This document shows positions 5,361 to 58,040 of a stretch of DNA of 64,000 bases, piece after piece. A program made the position numbers and the translations under genes. The stretch lies in the NCBI RefSeq assembly GCF_016026235.1, contig NZ_CP065613.1. The stretch is one strand, 5' to 3'. The stretch is from Escherichia coli. Lineage in GTDB: Bacteria; Pseudomonadota; Gammaproteobacteria; Enterobacterales; Enterobacteriaceae. Under the pieces are notes generated by a model, which saw only the letters and a program-made list of their open reading frames with translations, was not told the DNA's origin and made no database searches. Each line of letters opens with the position of its first letter. The first letter of the stretch is position 1.

Positions 5361-6536
5361 ATGACAAATCAACCAACGGAAATTGCCATTGTCGGCGGAG
5401 GAATGGTCGGCGGCGCACTGGCGCTGGGGCTGGCACAGCACGGATTTACGGTAACGGTGATCGAGCACGCAGAACCTGCACCGTTTGTCGCTGATAGCCA
5501 ACCGGACGTGCGGATCTCGGCGATCAGCGCGGCTTCGGTATCATTGCTTAAAGGGTTAGGGGTCTGGGATGCAGTACAGGCTATGCGTTGCCATCCTTAC
5601 CGCAGACTGGAAACGTGGGAGTGGGAAACGGCGCATGTGGTATTTGACGCTGCTGAACTTAAGCTACCGCTGCTTGGCTATATGGTGGAAAACACCGTCC
5701 TGCAACAGGCATTGTGGCAGGCGCTGGAAGCGCATCCGAAAGTAACGTTACGTGTGCCAGGCTCGCTGATTGCATTACATCGAGATAATGATCTTCAGGA
5801 GCTGGAACTGAAGGGCGGTGAAACGATCCGCGCGAAACTGGTGATTGGTGCCGACGGCGCAAATTCTCAGGTGCGGCAGATGGCGGGAATTGGCGTTCAT
5901 GCCTGGCAGTATGCGCAGTCGTGCATGTTGATTAGCGTACAGTGTGAGAACGATCCCGGCGACAGCACCTGGCAGCAATTTACCCCGGACGGACCGCGTG
6001 CGTTTCTGCCGTTGTTTGATAACTGGGCATCGCTGGTGTGGTATGACTCTCCGGCGCGTATTCGCCAGTTGCAGAATATGAATATGGCGCAACTCCAGGC
6101 GGAAATCGCGAAGCATTTCCCGTCGCGTCTGGGTTACGTTACACCGCTTGCCGCTGGTGCGTTTCCGCTGACGCGCCGACATGCGTTGCAGTATGTGCAG
6201 CCGGGGCTTGCGCTGGTGGGCGATGCCGCGCATACCATCCATCCGCTGGCGGGGCAGGGGGTGAATCTTGGTTATCGTGATGTCGATGCCCTGATTGATG
6301 TTCTGGTGAATGCCCGCAACTACGGTGAAGCGTGGGCCAGTTATCCTGTCCTCAAGCGTTACCAGATGCGGCGCATGGCGGATAACTTCATTATGCAAAG
6401 TGGTATGGATCTGTTTTATGCCGGATTCAGTAATAATCTGCCGCCGCTGCGTTTTGTGCGTAATCTCGGGTTAATGGCGGCAGAGCGTGCTGGCGTGTTG
6501 AAACGTCAGGCGCTGAAATATGCGTTAGGGTTGTAG
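5361..6536 (+). CDS. ubiF: Ubiquinone biosynthesis FAD-dependent hydroxylase UbiF, 391 aa
   Basis: FAD-binding fingerprint IAIVGGGMVGGALALGL; ATG at 5361 preceded by AGGA; the ORF table started 2 codons earlier at TTG. Confidence 0.93.
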   Translation: MTNQPTEIAIVGGGMVGGALALGLAQHGFTVTVIEHAEPAPFVADSQPDVRISAISAASVSLLKGLGVWDAVQAMRCHPYRRLETWEWETAHVVFDAAELKLPLLGYMVENTVLQQALWQALEAHPKVTLRVPGSLIALHRDNDLQELELKGGETIRAKLVIGADGANSQVRQMAGIGVHAWQYAQSCMLISVQCENDPGDSTWQQFTPDGPRAFLPLFDNWASLVWYDSPARIRQLQNMNMAQLQAEIAKHFPSRLGYVTPLAAGAFPLTRRHALQYVQPGLALVGDAAHTIHPLAGQGVNLGYRDVDALIDVLVNARNYGEAWASYPVLKRYQMRRMADNFIMQSGMDLFYAGFSNNLPPLRFVRNLGLMAAERAGVLKRQALKYALGL

Positions 6537-6544
6537 CCTTACAA

Positions 6545-6640
6545 CATTGCCGGATGCGTGCCAACCGTAGGTCAGATAAGACGCGGCAGCGTCGCATCCG
6601 ACATTGAAGGATAAGACGTGTCAACATCGCATTCGACATT
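6545..6640. repeat. REP (repetitive extragenic palindromic) element cluster
   Basis: REP-like palindromes gccggatgcg... / gtaggtcagataagacgcggcagcgtcgcatccgac between ubiF and the tRNA operon. Confidence 0.7.
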
Positions 6641-6649
6641 GAATGAACG

Positions 6650-6688
6650 CAGAAAAGCAAAAAGCTCGCCGAAGCGAGCTTTTTTAAT
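6650..6688. terminator. Bidirectional intrinsic terminator (ubiF on plus; tRNA operon on minus)
   Basis: Hairpin aaagctcgc-cgaa-gcgagcttt followed by TTTTT on plus and preceded by an A-run (T-run on minus). Confidence 0.7.
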
Positions 6689-6689
6689 G

Positions 6690-6764
6690 TGGCTGGGGTA
6701 CGAGGATTCGAACCTCGGAATGCCGGAATCAGAATCCGGTGCCTTACCGCTTGGCGATACCCCA
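6690..6764 (-). tRNA. glnX: tRNA-Gln (anticodon CUG), 75 nt including CCA
   Basis: Reverse complement matches the E. coli tRNA-Gln2 sequence as recalled: UGGGGUAUCGCCAAGCGGUAAGGCACCGGAUUCUGAUUCCGG...CCA; anticodon loop AUUCUGAUU. Confidence 0.97.
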
Positions 6765-6801
6765 ACTGGGTGCACTTACGATGTAAGCGTCTTGAATAAA
6801 T

Positions 6802-6876
6802 TGGCTGGGGTACGAGGATTCGAACCTCGGAATGCCGGAATCAGAATCCGGTGCCTTACCGCTTGGCGATACCCCA
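6802..6876 (-). tRNA. glnV: tRNA-Gln (anticodon CUG, wild-type, i.e. not the supE CUA allele)
   Basis: Identical in sequence to the copy at 6690-6764; anticodon CUG. Confidence 0.97.
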
Positions 6877-6924
6877 ACAAATTGGTTTTTGAATTTGCCG
6901 AACGTATTCGACACATTCAGAATG

Positions 6925-7001
6925 TGGTGGCTACGACGGGATTCGAACCTGTGACCCCATCATTATGAGTGATGTGCTCTAACCAACTGAGCTACGTAGC
7001 C
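6925..7001 (-). tRNA. metU: Elongator tRNA-Met (anticodon CAU), 77 nt
   Basis: Reverse complement GGCUACGUAGCUCAGUUGGUUAGAGCACAUCACUCAUAAUGAUGGGGUCACAGGUUCGAAUCCCGUCGUAGCCACCA. Confidence 0.97.
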
Positions 7002-7016
7002 AGATTGTTTCTTCGA

Positions 7017-7091
7017 TGGCTGGGGTACCTGGATTCGAACCAGGGAATGCCGGTATCAAAAACCGGTGCCTTACCGCTTGGCGATACCCCA
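7017..7091 (-). tRNA. glnW: tRNA-Gln (anticodon UUG)
   Basis: Reverse complement gives a tRNA-Gln1-type sequence with anticodon loop UUUUGAU; CCA encoded. Confidence 0.97.
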
Positions 7092-7125
7092 ATAACCGGG
7101 CGGTGAACCGCTTACTCGAAGAAGA

Positions 7126-7200
7126 TGGCTGGGGTACCTGGATTCGAACCAGGGAATGCCGGTATCAAAAACCGGTGCCTTACCGCTTGGCGATACCCCA
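7126..7200 (-). tRNA. glnU: tRNA-Gln (anticodon UUG)
   Basis: Identical to the copy at 7017-7091. Confidence 0.97.
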
Positions 7201-7223
7201 TCCGTACAACGCTTTCTGGTGAA

Positions 7224-7308
7224 TGGTGCGGGAGGCGAGACTTGAACTCGCACACCTTGCGGCGCCAGAACCTAAATCTGGTGCGTCTACCAATTTCGCC
7301 ACTCCCGC
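7224..7308 (-). tRNA. leuW: tRNA-Leu (anticodon UAG), 85 nt with long variable arm
   Basis: Reverse complement GCGGGAGUGGCGAAAUUGGUAGACGCACCAGAUUUAGGUUCUGGCGCCGCAAGGUGUGCGAGUUCAAGUCUCGCCUCCCGCACCA. Confidence 0.96.
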
Positions 7309-7316
7309 AAAAAAGA

Positions 7317-7393
7317 TGGTGGCTACGACGGGATTCGAACCTGTGACCCCATCATTATGAGTGATGTGCTCTAACCAACTGAGCTACGTAGCC
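7317..7393 (-). tRNA. metT: Elongator tRNA-Met (anticodon CAU)
   Basis: Identical to the copy at 6925-7001; first gene of the minus-strand tRNA operon. Confidence 0.97.
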
Positions 7394-7733
7394 ATCTTTT
7401 TTTCGCGATACCTTATCGGCGTTGCGGGGCGCATTATGCGTATAGAGCCTTGCAGCGTCAACCTCTTTTTCAAGGAAAATTGCTCGAAAGTGACTGTTTG
7501 GTTAGGTTGCGAACAGCGTGGCGCTATATTCGTCAATTATTGTTTACTTTGTGTTTTTTCCCCACCCTACAGCCATTCTTCTGTCGTACAGGATGAAATT
7601 CGGAATTCAACAATAGTGGTGGGAAATTAATCTATGAAATACTGGCCTACAGTGATGAGTTGTCAAACAGTGATGTGGCAAACCCGGAACATTTCCTTAC
7701 TGCATATCAGAATTAACAAGCACCTCAATAACT

Positions 7734-7766
7734 GAAACAGCCCCGGATTTCACCGGGGCTGTTTCG
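7734..7766 (-). terminator. Intrinsic terminator downstream of asnB
   Basis: GC-rich hairpin cagccccgg...ccggggctg immediately after the asnB stop on the minus strand, followed by a short U-run. Confidence 0.6.
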
Positions 7767-7772
7767 CATTTC

Positions 7773-9437
7773 TTACTTATACGCCGACTGGTGAACGCCA
7801 ACCGCACGACCAGACGGATCGTCCATTTTCTTGAACGCCTCATCCCACTCAATCGCTTTAGCGGAAGAACACGCGACGGAAGGACCGCCCGGTACGCACT
7901 CAGCAGCGCTCGGAAGTGGGAACAGTTCTTCAAAGATCTCCCGGTACAGATACGCTTCTTTGGACGTCGGCGTGTTGTACGGGAAGCGGAAGCGGGCAGT
8001 TTCCAGCTGTTGATCAGAAACCTGCTGCGCCGCCACTTCTTTCAGGGTGTCGATCCAACTGTAACCGACGCCATCGGAGAACTGCTCTTTCTGCCGCCAG
8101 GCCACGCTTGCAGGCAGATACGCTTCAAAACATTCACGCAGGATGTGTTTTTCCATCTTGCCGTTACCGCACATTTTATCCTGCGGGTTAATGCGCATCG
8201 CCACGTCGAGGAATTTCTTGTCGAGGAACGGAACGCGTGCTTCCACGCCCCAGGCTGACATCGCTTTGTTGGCACGCGCGCAGTCATACATATGCAGGGC
8301 CAGCAGTTTACGCACCGTCTCTTCATGCAGTTCTTTGGCATTCGGTGCTTTGTGGAAGTAAAGATAACCGCCGAACACTTCATCAGAACCTTCACCGGAC
8401 AGCACCATTTTAATGCCCATCGCTTTGATCTTACGCGACATTAAATACATCGGTGTTGAAGCGCGAATAGTGGTCACATCATAGGTTTCGATGTGGTAAA
8501 TCACGTCGCGGATGGCGTCCAGACCTTCCTGTACAGTGAAGTGAATTTCATGATGCACAGTGCCCAGATGGTTTGCCACTTCCTGGGCTGCTTTCAGATC
8601 CGGTGAACCCGGCAGACCTACAGCAAAGGAGTGTAACTGCGGCCACCAGGCTTCAGAGCGTTCCTGATCTTCCACGCGACGGGCGGCGTATTTCTTGGTG
8701 ATAGCGGAAATAATTGAGGAATCCAGACCACCAGAAAGCAGCACACCGTAAGGCACATCAGACATCAGATGGCTTTTAACGGAATCTTCCAGAGCCTGAC
8801 GCAGCTCGTTTTTGTCGGTCACGTTATCTTTCACTGCATCAAAGTCGAACCAGTCGCGATGATAATAAGAACGGATTTCGCCGTCCTGGCTCCACAAATA
8901 GCTCCCCGCCGGGAACTCTTTAATCGTGCGGCAAACTGGCACCAGCGATTTCATTTCTGAGGCCACATACAGCTGACCGTGTTCGTCATAGCCCATATAC
9001 AGTGGGATGATCCCCAGATGGTCGCGACCAATCAGGTAGGCATCTTTTTCGCTGTCGTACAGGGCAAAGGCAAACATGCCCTGCAAGTCGTCGAGAAATT
9101 CCGGCCCTTTTTCCTGATACAGCGCGAGGATCACTTCACAGTCAGACCCTGTCTGGAACTGATAACGATCGCCATATTCAGCGCGCAATGCCTGGTGGTT
9201 GTAGATTTCACCGTTTACCGCCAGTACGTGGGTTTTTTGTTGGTTGTAGAGAGGTTGCGCCCCCGCGTTAACGTCAACAATTGACAGACGTTCGTGAGCG
9301 AGAATGGCGTTATCGCTGGCATAAATACCGGACCAGTCCGGGCCACGATGACGCATCAGGCGTGACAGCTCGAGTGCTTTCTTACGCAGCTCAACTGCGT
9401 CTGTTTTGATATCGAATACGCCAAAAATTGAACACAT
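7773..9437 (-). CDS. asnB: Asparagine synthetase B (glutamine-hydrolysing), 554 aa
   Basis: Protein begins MCSIFGVFDIKTD (N-terminal Cys nucleophile after Met); ATG at 9437; the ORF-table N-extension of 27 aa is rejected. Confidence 0.95.
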   Translation of the reverse strand: MCSIFGVFDIKTDAVELRKKALELSRLMRHRGPDWSGIYASDNAILAHERLSIVDVNAGAQPLYNQQKTHVLAVNGEIYNHQALRAEYGDRYQFQTGSDCEVILALYQEKGPEFLDDLQGMFAFALYDSEKDAYLIGRDHLGIIPLYMGYDEHGQLYVASEMKSLVPVCRTIKEFPAGSYLWSQDGEIRSYYHRDWFDFDAVKDNVTDKNELRQALEDSVKSHLMSDVPYGVLLSGGLDSSIISAITKKYAARRVEDQERSEAWWPQLHSFAVGLPGSPDLKAAQEVANHLGTVHHEIHFTVQEGLDAIRDVIYHIETYDVTTIRASTPMYLMSRKIKAMGIKMVLSGEGSDEVFGGYLYFHKAPNAKELHEETVRKLLALHMYDCARANKAMSAWGVEARVPFLDKKFLDVAMRINPQDKMCGNGKMEKHILRECFEAYLPASVAWRQKEQFSDGVGYSWIDTLKEVAAQQVSDQQLETARFRFPYNTPTSKEAYLYREIFEELFPLPSAAECVPGGPSVACSSAKAIEWDEAFKKMDDPSGRAVGVHQSAYK

Positions 9438-9682: not shown

Positions 9683-9795
9683 ATGCCGGATGCGGCGTGA
9701 ACGCCTTATCCGGCCTACAAAAGCATGAAAATTCAATATATTGCAGGAGCTGCGTAGGCCTGATAAGCGTAGCGCATCAGGCAGTTTGGCGTTTG
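9683..9795. repeat. BIME/RIP element: two inverted REPs flanking an IHF-like core
   Basis: gccggatgcggcgtgaacgccttatccggcctac ... aattcaatatattgcag ... gtaggcctgataagcgtagcgcatcaggc. Confidence 0.8.
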
Positions 9796-25589: not shown

Positions 25590-25690
25590 TTGCCTGATGC
25601 GCTACGCTTATCAGGCCTGCGAGGATGGTGCAATATATTGAATTTAAGCGATTTTGTAGGCCGGATAAGGCGTTCATGCCGGATCCAGCA
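25590..25690. repeat. BIME/RIP element (two inverted REPs plus IHF-like core) at the pgm-kdpE junction
   Basis: gcctgatgcgctacgcttatcaggcctgc ... caatatattgaatttaagcg ... gtaggccggataaggcgttcatgccggatcc. Confidence 0.8.
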
Positions 25691-25699
25691 TTTAACCGC

Positions 25700-26377
25700 C
25701 TAAAGCATAAACCGATACCCAATACCGGTTTCAGTAATGAAATGGCGGGGGCGAGTGGGATCCTGTTCCAGTTTTTGTCGCAGATGTCCCATATAAATAC
25801 GCAAATAATGACTGTGTTCGACCGCGTTTGGCCCCCACACCTGGTTAAGGAGTTGGCGCTGGGTGAGCACTTTCCCGGCATTATTCAGCAGCACCGCCAG
25901 CAGGCGGAATTCAATCGGCGTGAGATGCACCTCTTCCTCACCCCGGTGAATCACGCGGGCGGCTAAATCGACGGTAACATCGGAAAATTTCACCAGCGGA
26001 TCTGGCGCGGCGGTGGCGGAGTGGCGGCGTAAAGCGACGCGCAGACGGGCCTGCAATTCGCCAATGCCAAACGGCTTACTTAGATAATCATCCGCTCCGG
26101 CATCCAGCGCGGCGATTTTGTCGCTCTCTTCGCTGCGTGCGGAAAGCACAATCACCGGCACCGCGCTCCACTGGCGCAGGTCGCGGATAAACTCAATCCC
26201 ATCACCATCGGGCAGGCCGAGATCGAGAATAATCAAATCTGGCTTACGGGTTGCCGCTTCCAGCAAGCCGCGTTGCAGCGTTTCGGCCTCAAAGACGCGC
26301 ATACCGTCGCCCTCCAGCGCCGTGCGCAGAAAGCGACGAATAGCCTGTTCATCTTCAACAATCAGAACGTTTGTCAC
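25700..26377 (-). CDS. kdpE: Response regulator KdpE (OmpR family), 225 aa
   Basis: [66 protein letters not shown]...; receiver plus winged-helix domains. Confidence 0.96.
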   Translation of the reverse strand: MTNVLIVEDEQAIRRFLRTALEGDGMRVFEAETLQRGLLEAATRKPDLIILDLGLPDGDGIEFIRDLRQWSAVPVIVLSARSEESDKIAALDAGADDYLSKPFGIGELQARLRVALRRHSATAAPDPLVKFSDVTVDLAARVIHRGEEEVHLTPIEFRLLAVLLNNAGKVLTQRQLLNQVWGPNAVEHSHYLRIYMGHLRQKLEQDPTRPRHFITETGIGYRFML

Positions 26378-34004: not shown

Positions 34005-34040
34005 TGAAAACCGCTAGTGGAAACGCTGGCGGTTTTTTTC
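34005..34040 (+). terminator. Intrinsic terminator downstream of ybfA
   Basis: aaccgc...gcggtt hairpin followed by TTTTTTT (34034-34040). Confidence 0.65.
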
Positions 34041-34085
34041 TTATCGCCGTCTACACTTACTCCTGTAAACCGTTCAGGAGCAGTA

Positions 34086-53499: not shown

Positions 53500-53640
53500 G
53501 TAGGCCTGATAAGACGCGCAAGCGTCGCATCAGGCAACCAGTGCCGGATGCGGCGTGAACGCCTTATCCGGCCTACAAGTCATTACCCGTAGGCCTGATA
53601 AGCGCAGCGCATCAGGCGTAACAAAGAAATGCAGGAAATC
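53500..53640. repeat. Cluster of three REP elements between sdhB and sucA
   Basis: gtaggcctgataagacgcgcaagcgtcgcatcaggc; gccggatgcggcgtgaacgccttatccggcctac; gtaggcctgataagcgcagcgcatcaggc. Confidence 0.85.
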
Positions 53641-57854: not shown

Positions 57855-58040
57855 AGACCGGATAAGACATTATCGCCTTCTCCGGCAATTGAAGCCTGAT
57901 GCGACGCTTAACGCGTCTTATCAGGCCTACGGGAAGCACCGATGTAGGTCGGATAAGGCGCTCGCGCCGCATCCGACAAGCGATGCCAGATGCGACGCTT
58001 ACACGTCTTATCAGGCCTACGGGTGACCGACAATACCCGG
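57855..58040. repeat. REP element cluster between sucB and sucC
   Basis: gcctgatgcgacgcttaacgcgtcttatcaggcctac, gtaggtcggataaggcgctcgcgccgcatccgac, gccagatgcgacgcttacacgtcttatcaggcctac. Confidence 0.85.

Follow-up and report, generated by a model that had tools for sequence, protein, structure and literature searches.

The metT operon of Escherichia coli K-12 is a well-described example of a transcript that carries several different tRNAs. Northern blots in K-12 reveal a full-length species that contains all seven tRNAs together with the terminator (PMC2241853). RNase E or RNase G strips the terminator before RNase P acts efficiently, as a retained terminator inhibits RNase P, and the five upstream tRNAs are separated by RNase P; in the rnpA49 mutant, metT RNA that is still unprocessed at its 5′ end builds up (PMC2241853). 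Clarke et al. located two direct-entry sites for RNase E on the downstream side of metU, at distances of 2 nt and 39 nt (PMC4191395), and RNase E cleavage in the metU–glnV spacer also requires the upstream glnW tRNA (PMC9841416). Shetty et al. noted that metT and metU encode an identical tRNA-Met and that the seven-gene operon can be deleted only with support from a plasmid (PMC6265465).

Several other E. coli loci, namely glyV-glyX-glyY, tyrT-tyrV, valU-X-Y and metZ-W-V, likewise consist of head-to-tail identical tRNA genes within one transcript and are prone to gaining or losing copies through unequal homologous recombination. The instability of tandem tyrT is classical, and unequal recombination between tandem tRNA genes and the concerted evolution of paralogues are both classical phenomena. 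The rrn operons and the tufA/tufB genes provide the best comparison for the latter, with paralogues that are identical within a genome and orthologues that differ between species, a pattern implying gene conversion. For glyVXY, three or four identical copies are reported across E. coli (PMC4539685). The metT operon differs from arrays of the glyVXY type in that it interleaves three different repeated genes. Recombination is thereby possible at two scales, involving either single-gene units of 109 and 112 bp or a 392-bp Met-to-Met unit consisting of metT-leuW-glnU-glnW, which includes leuW and both Gln(UUG) genes.

The DNA analysed here, referred to as the window, is a 64-kb stretch from an E. 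coli genome. ARAGORN finds seven tRNA genes in total within it, every one of them encoded on the minus strand in the 704 bp from 6690 to 7393. In the order of transcription these are as follows, each being called by both ARAGORN and Rfam and equal to its K-12 counterpart.

7317..7393, minus strand: metT, assigned as elongator tRNA-Met(CAU), 77 nt, K-12 b0673, 77/77 identical to metU
7224..7308, minus strand: leuW, tRNA-Leu(UAG), 85 nt, K-12 b0672, the sole unpaired gene
7126..7200, minus strand: glnU, tRNA-Gln(UUG), 75 nt, 75/75 identical to glnW
7017..7091, minus strand: glnW, tRNA-Gln(UUG), 75 nt
6925..7001, minus strand: metU, assigned as elongator tRNA-Met(CAU), 77 nt
6802..6876, minus strand: glnV, tRNA-Gln(CUG), 75 nt, wild-type anticodon CTG at 6844..6842
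6690..6764, minus strand: glnX, tRNA-Gln(CUG), 75 nt, anticodon CTG at 6732..6730, 75/75 identical to glnV

The array thus reads Met(CAU)-Leu(UAG)-Gln(UUG)-Gln(UUG)-Met(CAU)-Gln(CUG)-Gln(CUG) on one strand, and ARAGORN returns the same calls for the K-12 locus. All seven genes score between 57.6 and 71.1 bits against the tRNA family RF00005, for which the gathering threshold is 29. [quoted passage not shown] A CAT anticodon is also carried by the genes for initiator tRNA-fMet and lysidine-modified tRNA-Ile2, and both of these assignments are ruled out for the two Met(CAU) genes by their identity to K-12 metT and metU. Judged by this sequence identity, the genes are those of elongator tRNA-Met (PMC6265465).

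The locus is the long-known metT operon, and nothing contradicts this identification. The region around the array is colinear with 694.5–699.5 kb of K-12 (97.9% identity over 5 kb), and the array lies between ubiF and asnB. The K-12 MG1655 counterparts glnX, glnV, metU, glnW, glnU, leuW and metT (b0664–b0673) are all base-for-base equal to the genes in the window, as are the 45 nt on the 3′ side of glnX, which include the terminator. The two loci therefore share gene order, strand, the ubiF and asnB flanks, seven gene sequences, promoter core and terminator, and each sequence feature by which the operon is recognized (order, sequence identity to K-12, position between ubiF and asnB, a single promoter and terminator) is found in the window. 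The differences from K-12 are small and consist of two substitutions in the glnV–glnX spacer, 1-nt length changes in the metU–glnV and metT–leuW spacers, and a change of 1 nt in the A-run of the leader. The surrounding genome is approximately 98% identical to K-12, which marks the window as another E. coli lineage. The closest complete E. coli genome is 98.9% identical over 25 kb, and the operon flanks are 99.9% identical to those of FDAARGOS_943. A 1.4-kb region covering the array is matched in 5,424 of 5,426 complete E. coli genomes, and the annotation of the matching genomes reads ubiF, four tRNA-Gln, two tRNA-Met and one tRNA-Leu, then asnB. The leuW gene with its spacer is found in 5,413 of the 5,426, at an identity of at least 99% in 5,412.

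Exact pairwise comparison supports the earlier description of three gene pairs as 100% identical over their full lengths (metT/metU 77/77, glnU/glnW 75/75, glnV/glnX 75/75). The probability of such identity arising by chance over 75–77 nt is negligible. The identity is restricted to the genes, ceasing 0–2 nt from their ends, and none of the six spacers (8, 23, 34, 15, 48 and 37 nt) resembles another. Seven of the 75 positions distinguish Gln(UUG) from Gln(CUG), namely the wobble base and three compensated stem pairs.

The preferred reading, to which we assign a probability of about 0.96, is that the metT operon is transcribed as a single precursor, and that its three pairs are old duplicates which have been homogenized by gene conversion and which occasionally undergo unequal recombination. 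It draws on what this analysis observed, namely the genes present and the identity of the pairs, the promoter, the terminator, synteny, copy-number variants between strains and cross-genus alleles, and takes the transcript and its RNases from the literature.

The origin of the pair identity was addressed by scanning for the metT–leuW junction in one genome per species of Enterobacterales, giving at least 120 loci in which genes were then called by ARAGORN. At least 46 complete loci have the canonical seven-gene order, and at least 23 have six genes, with a single Gln(CUG). Rarer forms among the listed loci contain one to four Gln(UUG) genes, one to three Gln(CUG) genes or, in Budvicia, a repeated Met-Leu-Gln unit. 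Paralogues within a genome are mostly identical among these listed loci: 73 identical against 26 not for Gln(UUG), 35 against 24 for Gln(CUG), and 70 against 30 for Met. The differences within genomes are 0.95, 1.60 and 0.47 nt for Gln(UUG), Gln(CUG) and Met, respectively, against 3.69, 4.59 and 1.17 nt between genomes, again among the listed loci. None of 2000 shuffles reaches this separation among those loci, in a permutation that ignores phylogenetic non-independence. The spacers are positionally orthologous in Escherichia, Citrobacter, Kluyvera, Enterobacter and Pseudocitrobacter, which places the duplications before these genera. Over these orthologous spacers the alleles in the glnV and glnX slots are A/A in E. 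coli, B/B in both C. gillenii and Kluyvera, and mixed in C. werkmanii (A/B) and Pseudocitrobacter (B/A). In Citrobacter both Met genes carry the same substitution relative to E. coli. E. albertii, C. amalonaticus and Trabulsiella have decayed relics of tRNA-Gln genes in their spacers, indicating that copies also arise and die.

Purifying selection alone, with no conversion or other form of homogenization, could in principle keep the pairs identical, since strong constraint acts on tRNA sequences. At least 72 species loci indeed have the commonest Gln(UUG) allele and at least 80 the commonest Met allele, and Trabulsiella and C. amalonaticus share the E. coli alleles without any change. However, selection does not impose a single sequence, as several alleles are functional (at least 29 Gln(UUG), 22 Gln(CUG) and 16 Met alleles among the listed loci). 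Moreover, ten different Gln(UUG) alleles, five Gln(CUG) alleles and three Met alleles occur among these loci as sets that are all identical within a genome, and the succession of A and B alleles in the Gln(CUG) slots requires alleles to move between slots. An explanation by selection alone is consequently improbable.

The slot-allele pattern over orthologous spacers points instead to gene conversion that does not reach beyond the gene bodies, alongside purifying selection, and it is these two processes that would hold the pairs identical. Gene conversion is here deduced from the distribution of alleles. Compared with the rrn operons and tufA/tufB, the conversion tracts of the metT operon would be very short, lying within gene bodies of 75–77 bp, and the copies are adjacent rather than dispersed. 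The cross-genus pattern may thus represent a compact natural example of conversion within 75-bp genes that lie between orthologous spacers. Enterobacteriaceae LSJC7 has a Gln(CUG) gene in place of glnW, which was considered as a possible anticodon switch; the body of this gene is of the Gln(CUG) type throughout, so that it represents a replacement or conversion and not a point switch.

The earlier note had also proposed that identical genes in tandem provide substrates for recombination, through which their number varies, with a comparison across strains as the check. This was carried out by BLAST of junction queries against the 5,426 complete E. coli genomes. Each query consisted of left flank, gene and right flank, which are contiguous only in a recombinant, and its size was chosen to hold a wild-type match below 80% of the query. 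Both Gln pairs and the Met unit vary. The Gln(CUG) pair is reduced to one gene in about 150 of the 5,426 genomes (152 pass the filter, a few of them being two-piece joins), and three or more copies are found in 27 clean single-piece matches and two odd ones. The Gln(UUG) pair is reduced to one gene in 71 of the genomes, using a query with a 27-nt metU tail, and three or more copies occur in 35. The 392-bp Met-to-Met unit is duplicated in 10 genomes, counting only full-length single-piece matches since the partial match of the wild type covers 84%, and is deleted in 8. Clonal relatives were counted individually, so that these numbers of genomes are not numbers of events; they are also upper bounds, and the canonical seven genes are kept in about 95% of genomes. 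The prediction of the note is therefore borne out, although part of the variation is artefactual (see below).

The genomes with a single Gln(CUG) include E24377A, E2348/69 and O26 RM10386. K-12 GM4792 carries five Gln(CUG) genes in tandem, and the array of Origami2-DE3, Met-Leu-Gln1x3-Met-Leu-Gln1-Met-Gln2x2, contains 11 genes. ARAGORN confirms six-gene arrays in AS19-RrmA- and UTAK-13 and a tandem of three Gln(CUG) genes in IH5. The junctions of the variants are exactly those expected for recombination between identical genes, and several classes of flank identity among the variants suggest several independent events. The identities of 75–77 bp would permit unequal homologous recombination, with RecA-type crossing-over as the presumed mechanism, leading to the occasional loss or gain of a Gln gene or of the 392-bp Met-to-Met unit.

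Some assemblies give reason to ask whether all of the differences between strains might be artefacts of an invariant locus. In 13 assemblies, including 536 and MC1061, leuW is absent from the entire genome and the best match to Gln(UUG) is only at the level of Gln(CUG). The RefSeq record of 536 contains only Met-Gln-Gln between asnB and ubiF, and in MC1061 the array is reduced to Met-Gln. Deletion of the Met-to-Met unit removes the sole tRNA-Leu(UAG) and both Gln(UUG) genes, which by wobble rules leaves the CUA and CAA codons with no cognate tRNA. A state lacking both leuW and Gln(UUG) should not be viable, and such assemblies are almost certainly assembly or cloning collapses. Similarly, a Gln(UUG) triplication is common to six laboratory-strain assemblies with adjacent accessions (CP080620–CP084529) in both B and K-12 backgrounds, namely TOP10, XL1-Blue, XL10-Gold, Stbl4, BL21(DE3) and Origami2. 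It is missing from other assemblies of those strains and looks like a pipeline effect. The third copy in HS30-1 is degenerate in a manner resembling error. Against a wholly artefactual origin, two E2348/69 records agree in having a single Gln(CUG), the same form recurs among related strains (several AVS strains, three BH100 substrains and two O139:H1 strains), and finished genomes, E24377A among them, have it as well. The species representatives of Enterobacterales span the same range of copy number, and the decayed spacer relics described above record real birth and death of copies. It is thus very unlikely that the locus is invariant in E. coli. The metT locus combines recurrent, real changes in copy number with assembly collapse. 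As 13 “complete” assemblies lack the sole tRNA-Leu(UAG) and the Gln(UUG) genes, the locus is useful as a sanity check on assemblies, and also on the tRNA-gene counts that feed models of codon usage. In a search of the literature, no previous population survey of copy number in the metT operon came up; this is weak evidence, as coverage of subscription journals was thin.

The perfect identity of the pairs, and the readiness with which expansions arise in present-day strains, could also be taken to mean that the duplications are recent and occurred within the Escherichia lineage. This is highly improbable given that the seven-gene order is shared by so many species loci across Enterobacterales and that the E. 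coli glnU–glnW, metU–glnV and glnV–glnX spacers align with those of Citrobacter, Kluyvera and Enterobacter. In addition, had the tandem duplications been recent, each spacer would have been duplicated along with its gene, whereas the two spacers that flank a pair in E. coli are unrelated to each other. The three pairs would instead be old tandem duplicates that predate the split of Escherichia, Citrobacter, Kluyvera and Enterobacter.

The elements that would control transcription of the array lie directly upstream of metT and downstream of glnX.

7433..7461, minus strand: operon promoter, −35 TTGACG at 7461..7456, 17-nt spacer, −10 CATAAT at 7438..7433, matching the consensus at 10 of 12 positions
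7394..7432, minus strand: 5′ leader running from the promoter to the start of mature metT and cleaved off by RNase P, positioned from the gene and promoter calls
6650..6684, minus strand: Rho-independent terminator from a terminator scan, with an 11-bp stem AAAAAGCUCGC / GCGAGCUUUUU, a UUCG loop and a U-rich tail

This promoter is the sole sigma-70-like site within 6300–7900. A GC-rich discriminator, GCGCCCCGC, directly follows the −10 CATAAT; such discriminators are typical of stringently controlled tRNA and rRNA promoters. Promoter, discriminator and leader are equal to those of K-12 except for the one A in the A-run, and the promoter core is conserved in E. albertii, Citrobacter, Enterobacter, Kluyvera, Serratia and Morganella. 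The terminator begins 5 nt past glnX and has a predicted folding energy of −17.9 kcal/mol (z = −4.49; none of 200 shuffles as good). Division of the array into several transcription units by internal promoters or terminators is the least probable alternative, since the small spacer hairpins that might in principle attenuate transcription have no U-tract, no second promoter-like site was found within 6300–7900, and the northern blots detect the full-length seven-tRNA species (PMC2241853).

As the genes, promoter and terminator are identical in the two strains, the K-12 mechanism can be carried over to the window strain, from which we infer a shared single seven-tRNA precursor and the same RNase E/G and RNase P pathway. 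One strong sigma-70 promoter with its GC-rich discriminator would start transcription and one intrinsic terminator would end it, to give a precursor of seven tRNAs. RNase E (or RNase G) would take off the terminator and make cuts in the AU-rich spacers that surround metU, glnV and glnX. Cleavage by RNase P would then generate the mature 5′ ends and free the individual tRNAs, whose 3′ ends would be trimmed by exonucleases. The operon would in this way be the source of all elongator tRNA-Met, both tRNA-Gln isoacceptors and the sole tRNA-Leu(UAG).

Two of the spacers contain a hairpin.

6772..6791, minus strand: conserved hairpin in the glnV-to-glnX spacer (RNAalifold), preceded by an AU-rich single-stranded stretch
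6887..6919, minus strand: hairpin in the metU-to-glnV spacer (folding), core CGAA-UACG-UUCG, with AU-rich single-stranded flanks

The glnV–glnX hairpin consists of 8 pairs, 6 of which show compensatory double changes among 32 distinct Enterobacteriaceae spacers (RNAalifold). In this alignment 98.4% of cells are paired, compared with 86.1% after shuffling (0 of 500 shuffles reach the observed value) and 25–53% in slid registers. As a single sequence it folds with −6.1 kcal/mol. The metU–glnV hairpin is more stable (−11.4 kcal/mol, z = −3.07) and is positioned between the two mapped RNase E sites (PMC4191395). An AU-rich single strand beside a hairpin fits the known context of RNase E substrates, and both hairpins are read here as processing elements. 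For the glnU–glnW spacer RNAalifold gives no consensus structure, and as a single sequence it folds no better than its shuffles (z = −0.36), despite an invariant GCGG...CCGC motif. No specific discussion of the glnV–glnX hairpin was found in the literature on processing of the operon.

A broader reading of these observations is that the array acts as a selectable dial of tRNA dosage, in which changes in the Gln genes (1 to 5 copies) and in the Met-Leu-Gln unit are adaptive in some lineages and not merely neutral, and that the covarying spacer hairpins, especially that between glnV and glnX, have a role beyond the RNase E context. They might, for example, insulate the folding of adjacent identical tRNAs, or give rise to stable spacer RNAs like the known tRNA-spacer sponges. 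Taken as a whole this proposal is improbable.

The glnV slot is also the site of supE44 (glnV44), in which the suppressor anticodon is CUA. Both glnV and glnX of the window have CTG, so that neither belongs to the glutamine amber suppressors (CUA). TP10-2 serves as a positive control, as its glnV slot carries CTA through a single G35A change, a supE44-type allele. The TP10-2 gene with CTA is labelled Pyl by ARAGORN and left unannotated by RefSeq. The earlier note was thus correct in calling glnV of the window wild-type and non-suppressor, and it had connected this state with an amber codon in ybgQ, which is likewise found.

47260..44810, minus strand: ybgQ orthologue, full length and in frame save for TAG at codon 309 (46336..46334)

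The product is 95.7% identical to K-12 YbgQ over 815 residues, the one internal stop being a TAG in place of K-12 CAG. A glnV amber suppressor would accordingly restore the glutamine of K-12. With no glutamine amber suppressor in the window strain, the TAG should terminate translation, and ybgQ is probably truncated and a pseudogene in this strain.

The spacer between glnV and glnX, the two tRNA-Gln(CUG) genes at the end of the metT operon, contains a small structured element with an AU-rich stretch preceding it.

Window 6772-6791, minus strand: small hairpin in the glnV-to-glnX spacer

The hairpin is retained with compensatory base changes in a set of 32 Enterobacteriaceae spacers. Double changes are seen in six of its 8 pairs, and positions are paired in 98.4% of cases compared with 86.1% in shuffles. 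The element probably represents an RNase E processing context; an explicit description of it was not found in the literature searched.

The spacers of related operons also record earlier gene copies. Decayed tRNA-Gln-like remnants (TGGGG..ATC.CCAGGCTGTAAG...) are observed in the 100-104 nt spacers of three loci; they are degenerated relics of additional Gln copies.

Escherichia albertii (locus L013), leuW-to-glnU spacer: tRNA-Gln-like remnant
C. amalonaticus (locus L064), leuW-to-glnU spacer: tRNA-Gln-like remnant
Trabulsiella (locus L108), glnV-to-glnX spacer: tRNA-Gln-like remnant

In Enterobacteriaceae bacterium LSJC7 (locus L071) the glnW slot is occupied by a Gln(CUG) gene. A point switch of the anticodon is ruled out as the entire gene body is of the Gln(CUG) type: one isoacceptor family has ectopically replaced or converted a gene of the other.

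Variant forms of the operon are also found within E. coli. In strain TP10-2 (L005, NZ_CP139661.1; locus positions 701-775) one base change, G35A, has turned the anticodon in the glnV slot into CTA, an allele of the supE44 amber-suppressor type. This gene is called tRNA-Pyl by ARAGORN and has no RefSeq annotation, illustrating how suppressor alleles are lost from automatic tRNA counts. Strain IH5 (L004, NZ_CP168269.1) has three tandem Gln(CUG) genes and one Met gene; homology to the operon stops precisely where the Met gene begins at its 5' end, after which ivbL-ilvB follows. The genome has therefore been either rearranged or misjoined at the tRNA-Met repeat. Finally, some lineages, represented by strain DFL.5 (L006) and the similar strains H27, H29, H32 and H33, carry an insert of ~430 bp, with a 438-nt hypothetical ORF, between asnB and the metT promoter region; the window lacks this insert.

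Three Gln(UUG) genes are present in each of six assemblies of laboratory strains whose accession numbers lie close together (NZ_CP080620, CP081007, CP081008, CP081009, CP081489 and CP084529). The strains (TOP10, XL1-Blue, XL10-Gold, Stbl4, BL21(DE3) and Origami2-DE3) represent both B and K-12 backgrounds, and the triplication common to them has the look of contamination or of an artefact from one shared pipeline. In Origami2-DE3 the Met-Leu-Gln unit is also duplicated to give 11 tRNA genes. The leuW gene is absent from 13 complete assemblies, including RefSeq NC_008253.1 (E. coli 536; L011) and NZ_CP195014.1 (MC1061). These are probably the same 13 in which the best match to a Gln(UUG) query reaches only the Gln(CUG) level, the overlap having been checked directly for 536 and MC1061 only. 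The asnB-to-ubiF interval of strain 536 holds just Met-Gln(CUG)-Gln(CUG). Loss of leuW almost certainly reflects repeat collapse during assembly or cloning and not biology.

The state of glnV and glnX bears on one further gene of the window.

Window 44810-47260, minus strand: ybgQ orthologue (fimbrial usher), with a stop codon at 46334-46336

A single TAG at codon 309, which is CAG (Gln) in K-12, interrupts an otherwise in-frame and full-length ybgQ orthologue. As neither glnV nor glnX is a suppressor, this orthologue is likely to be a pseudogene in the window strain.

The window also differs from K-12 in lacking two segments, each replaced by ~10 nt. The first contains ybfP, ybfG, ybfI, potE, speF and speFL, and the second the RhsC element from rhsC to ybfD. 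Between the operon terminator and ubiF, two imperfect repeats noted by eye look like REP/BIME-type palindromic elements. All of the Rfam matches below exceed the gathering score.

Window 6560-6650: two imperfect repeats, AATGTCG(A/G)ATGCGA...CGTCTTATC
Window 25690-25702: junction of the first missing segment (K-12 715,363-721,057, about 5.7 kb)
Window 34038-34048: junction of the second missing segment (K-12 729,395-738,962, about 9.6 kb)
Window 53503-53573, minus strand: naRNA4 (REP-derived nucleoid-associated RNA), Rfam, 88.4 bits
Window 57947-58017, plus strand: naRNA4, Rfam, 64.9 bits
Window 36073-36115, plus strand: ES036, Rfam, 75.1 bits
Window 9719-9761, plus strand: ES036, Rfam, 41.1 bits
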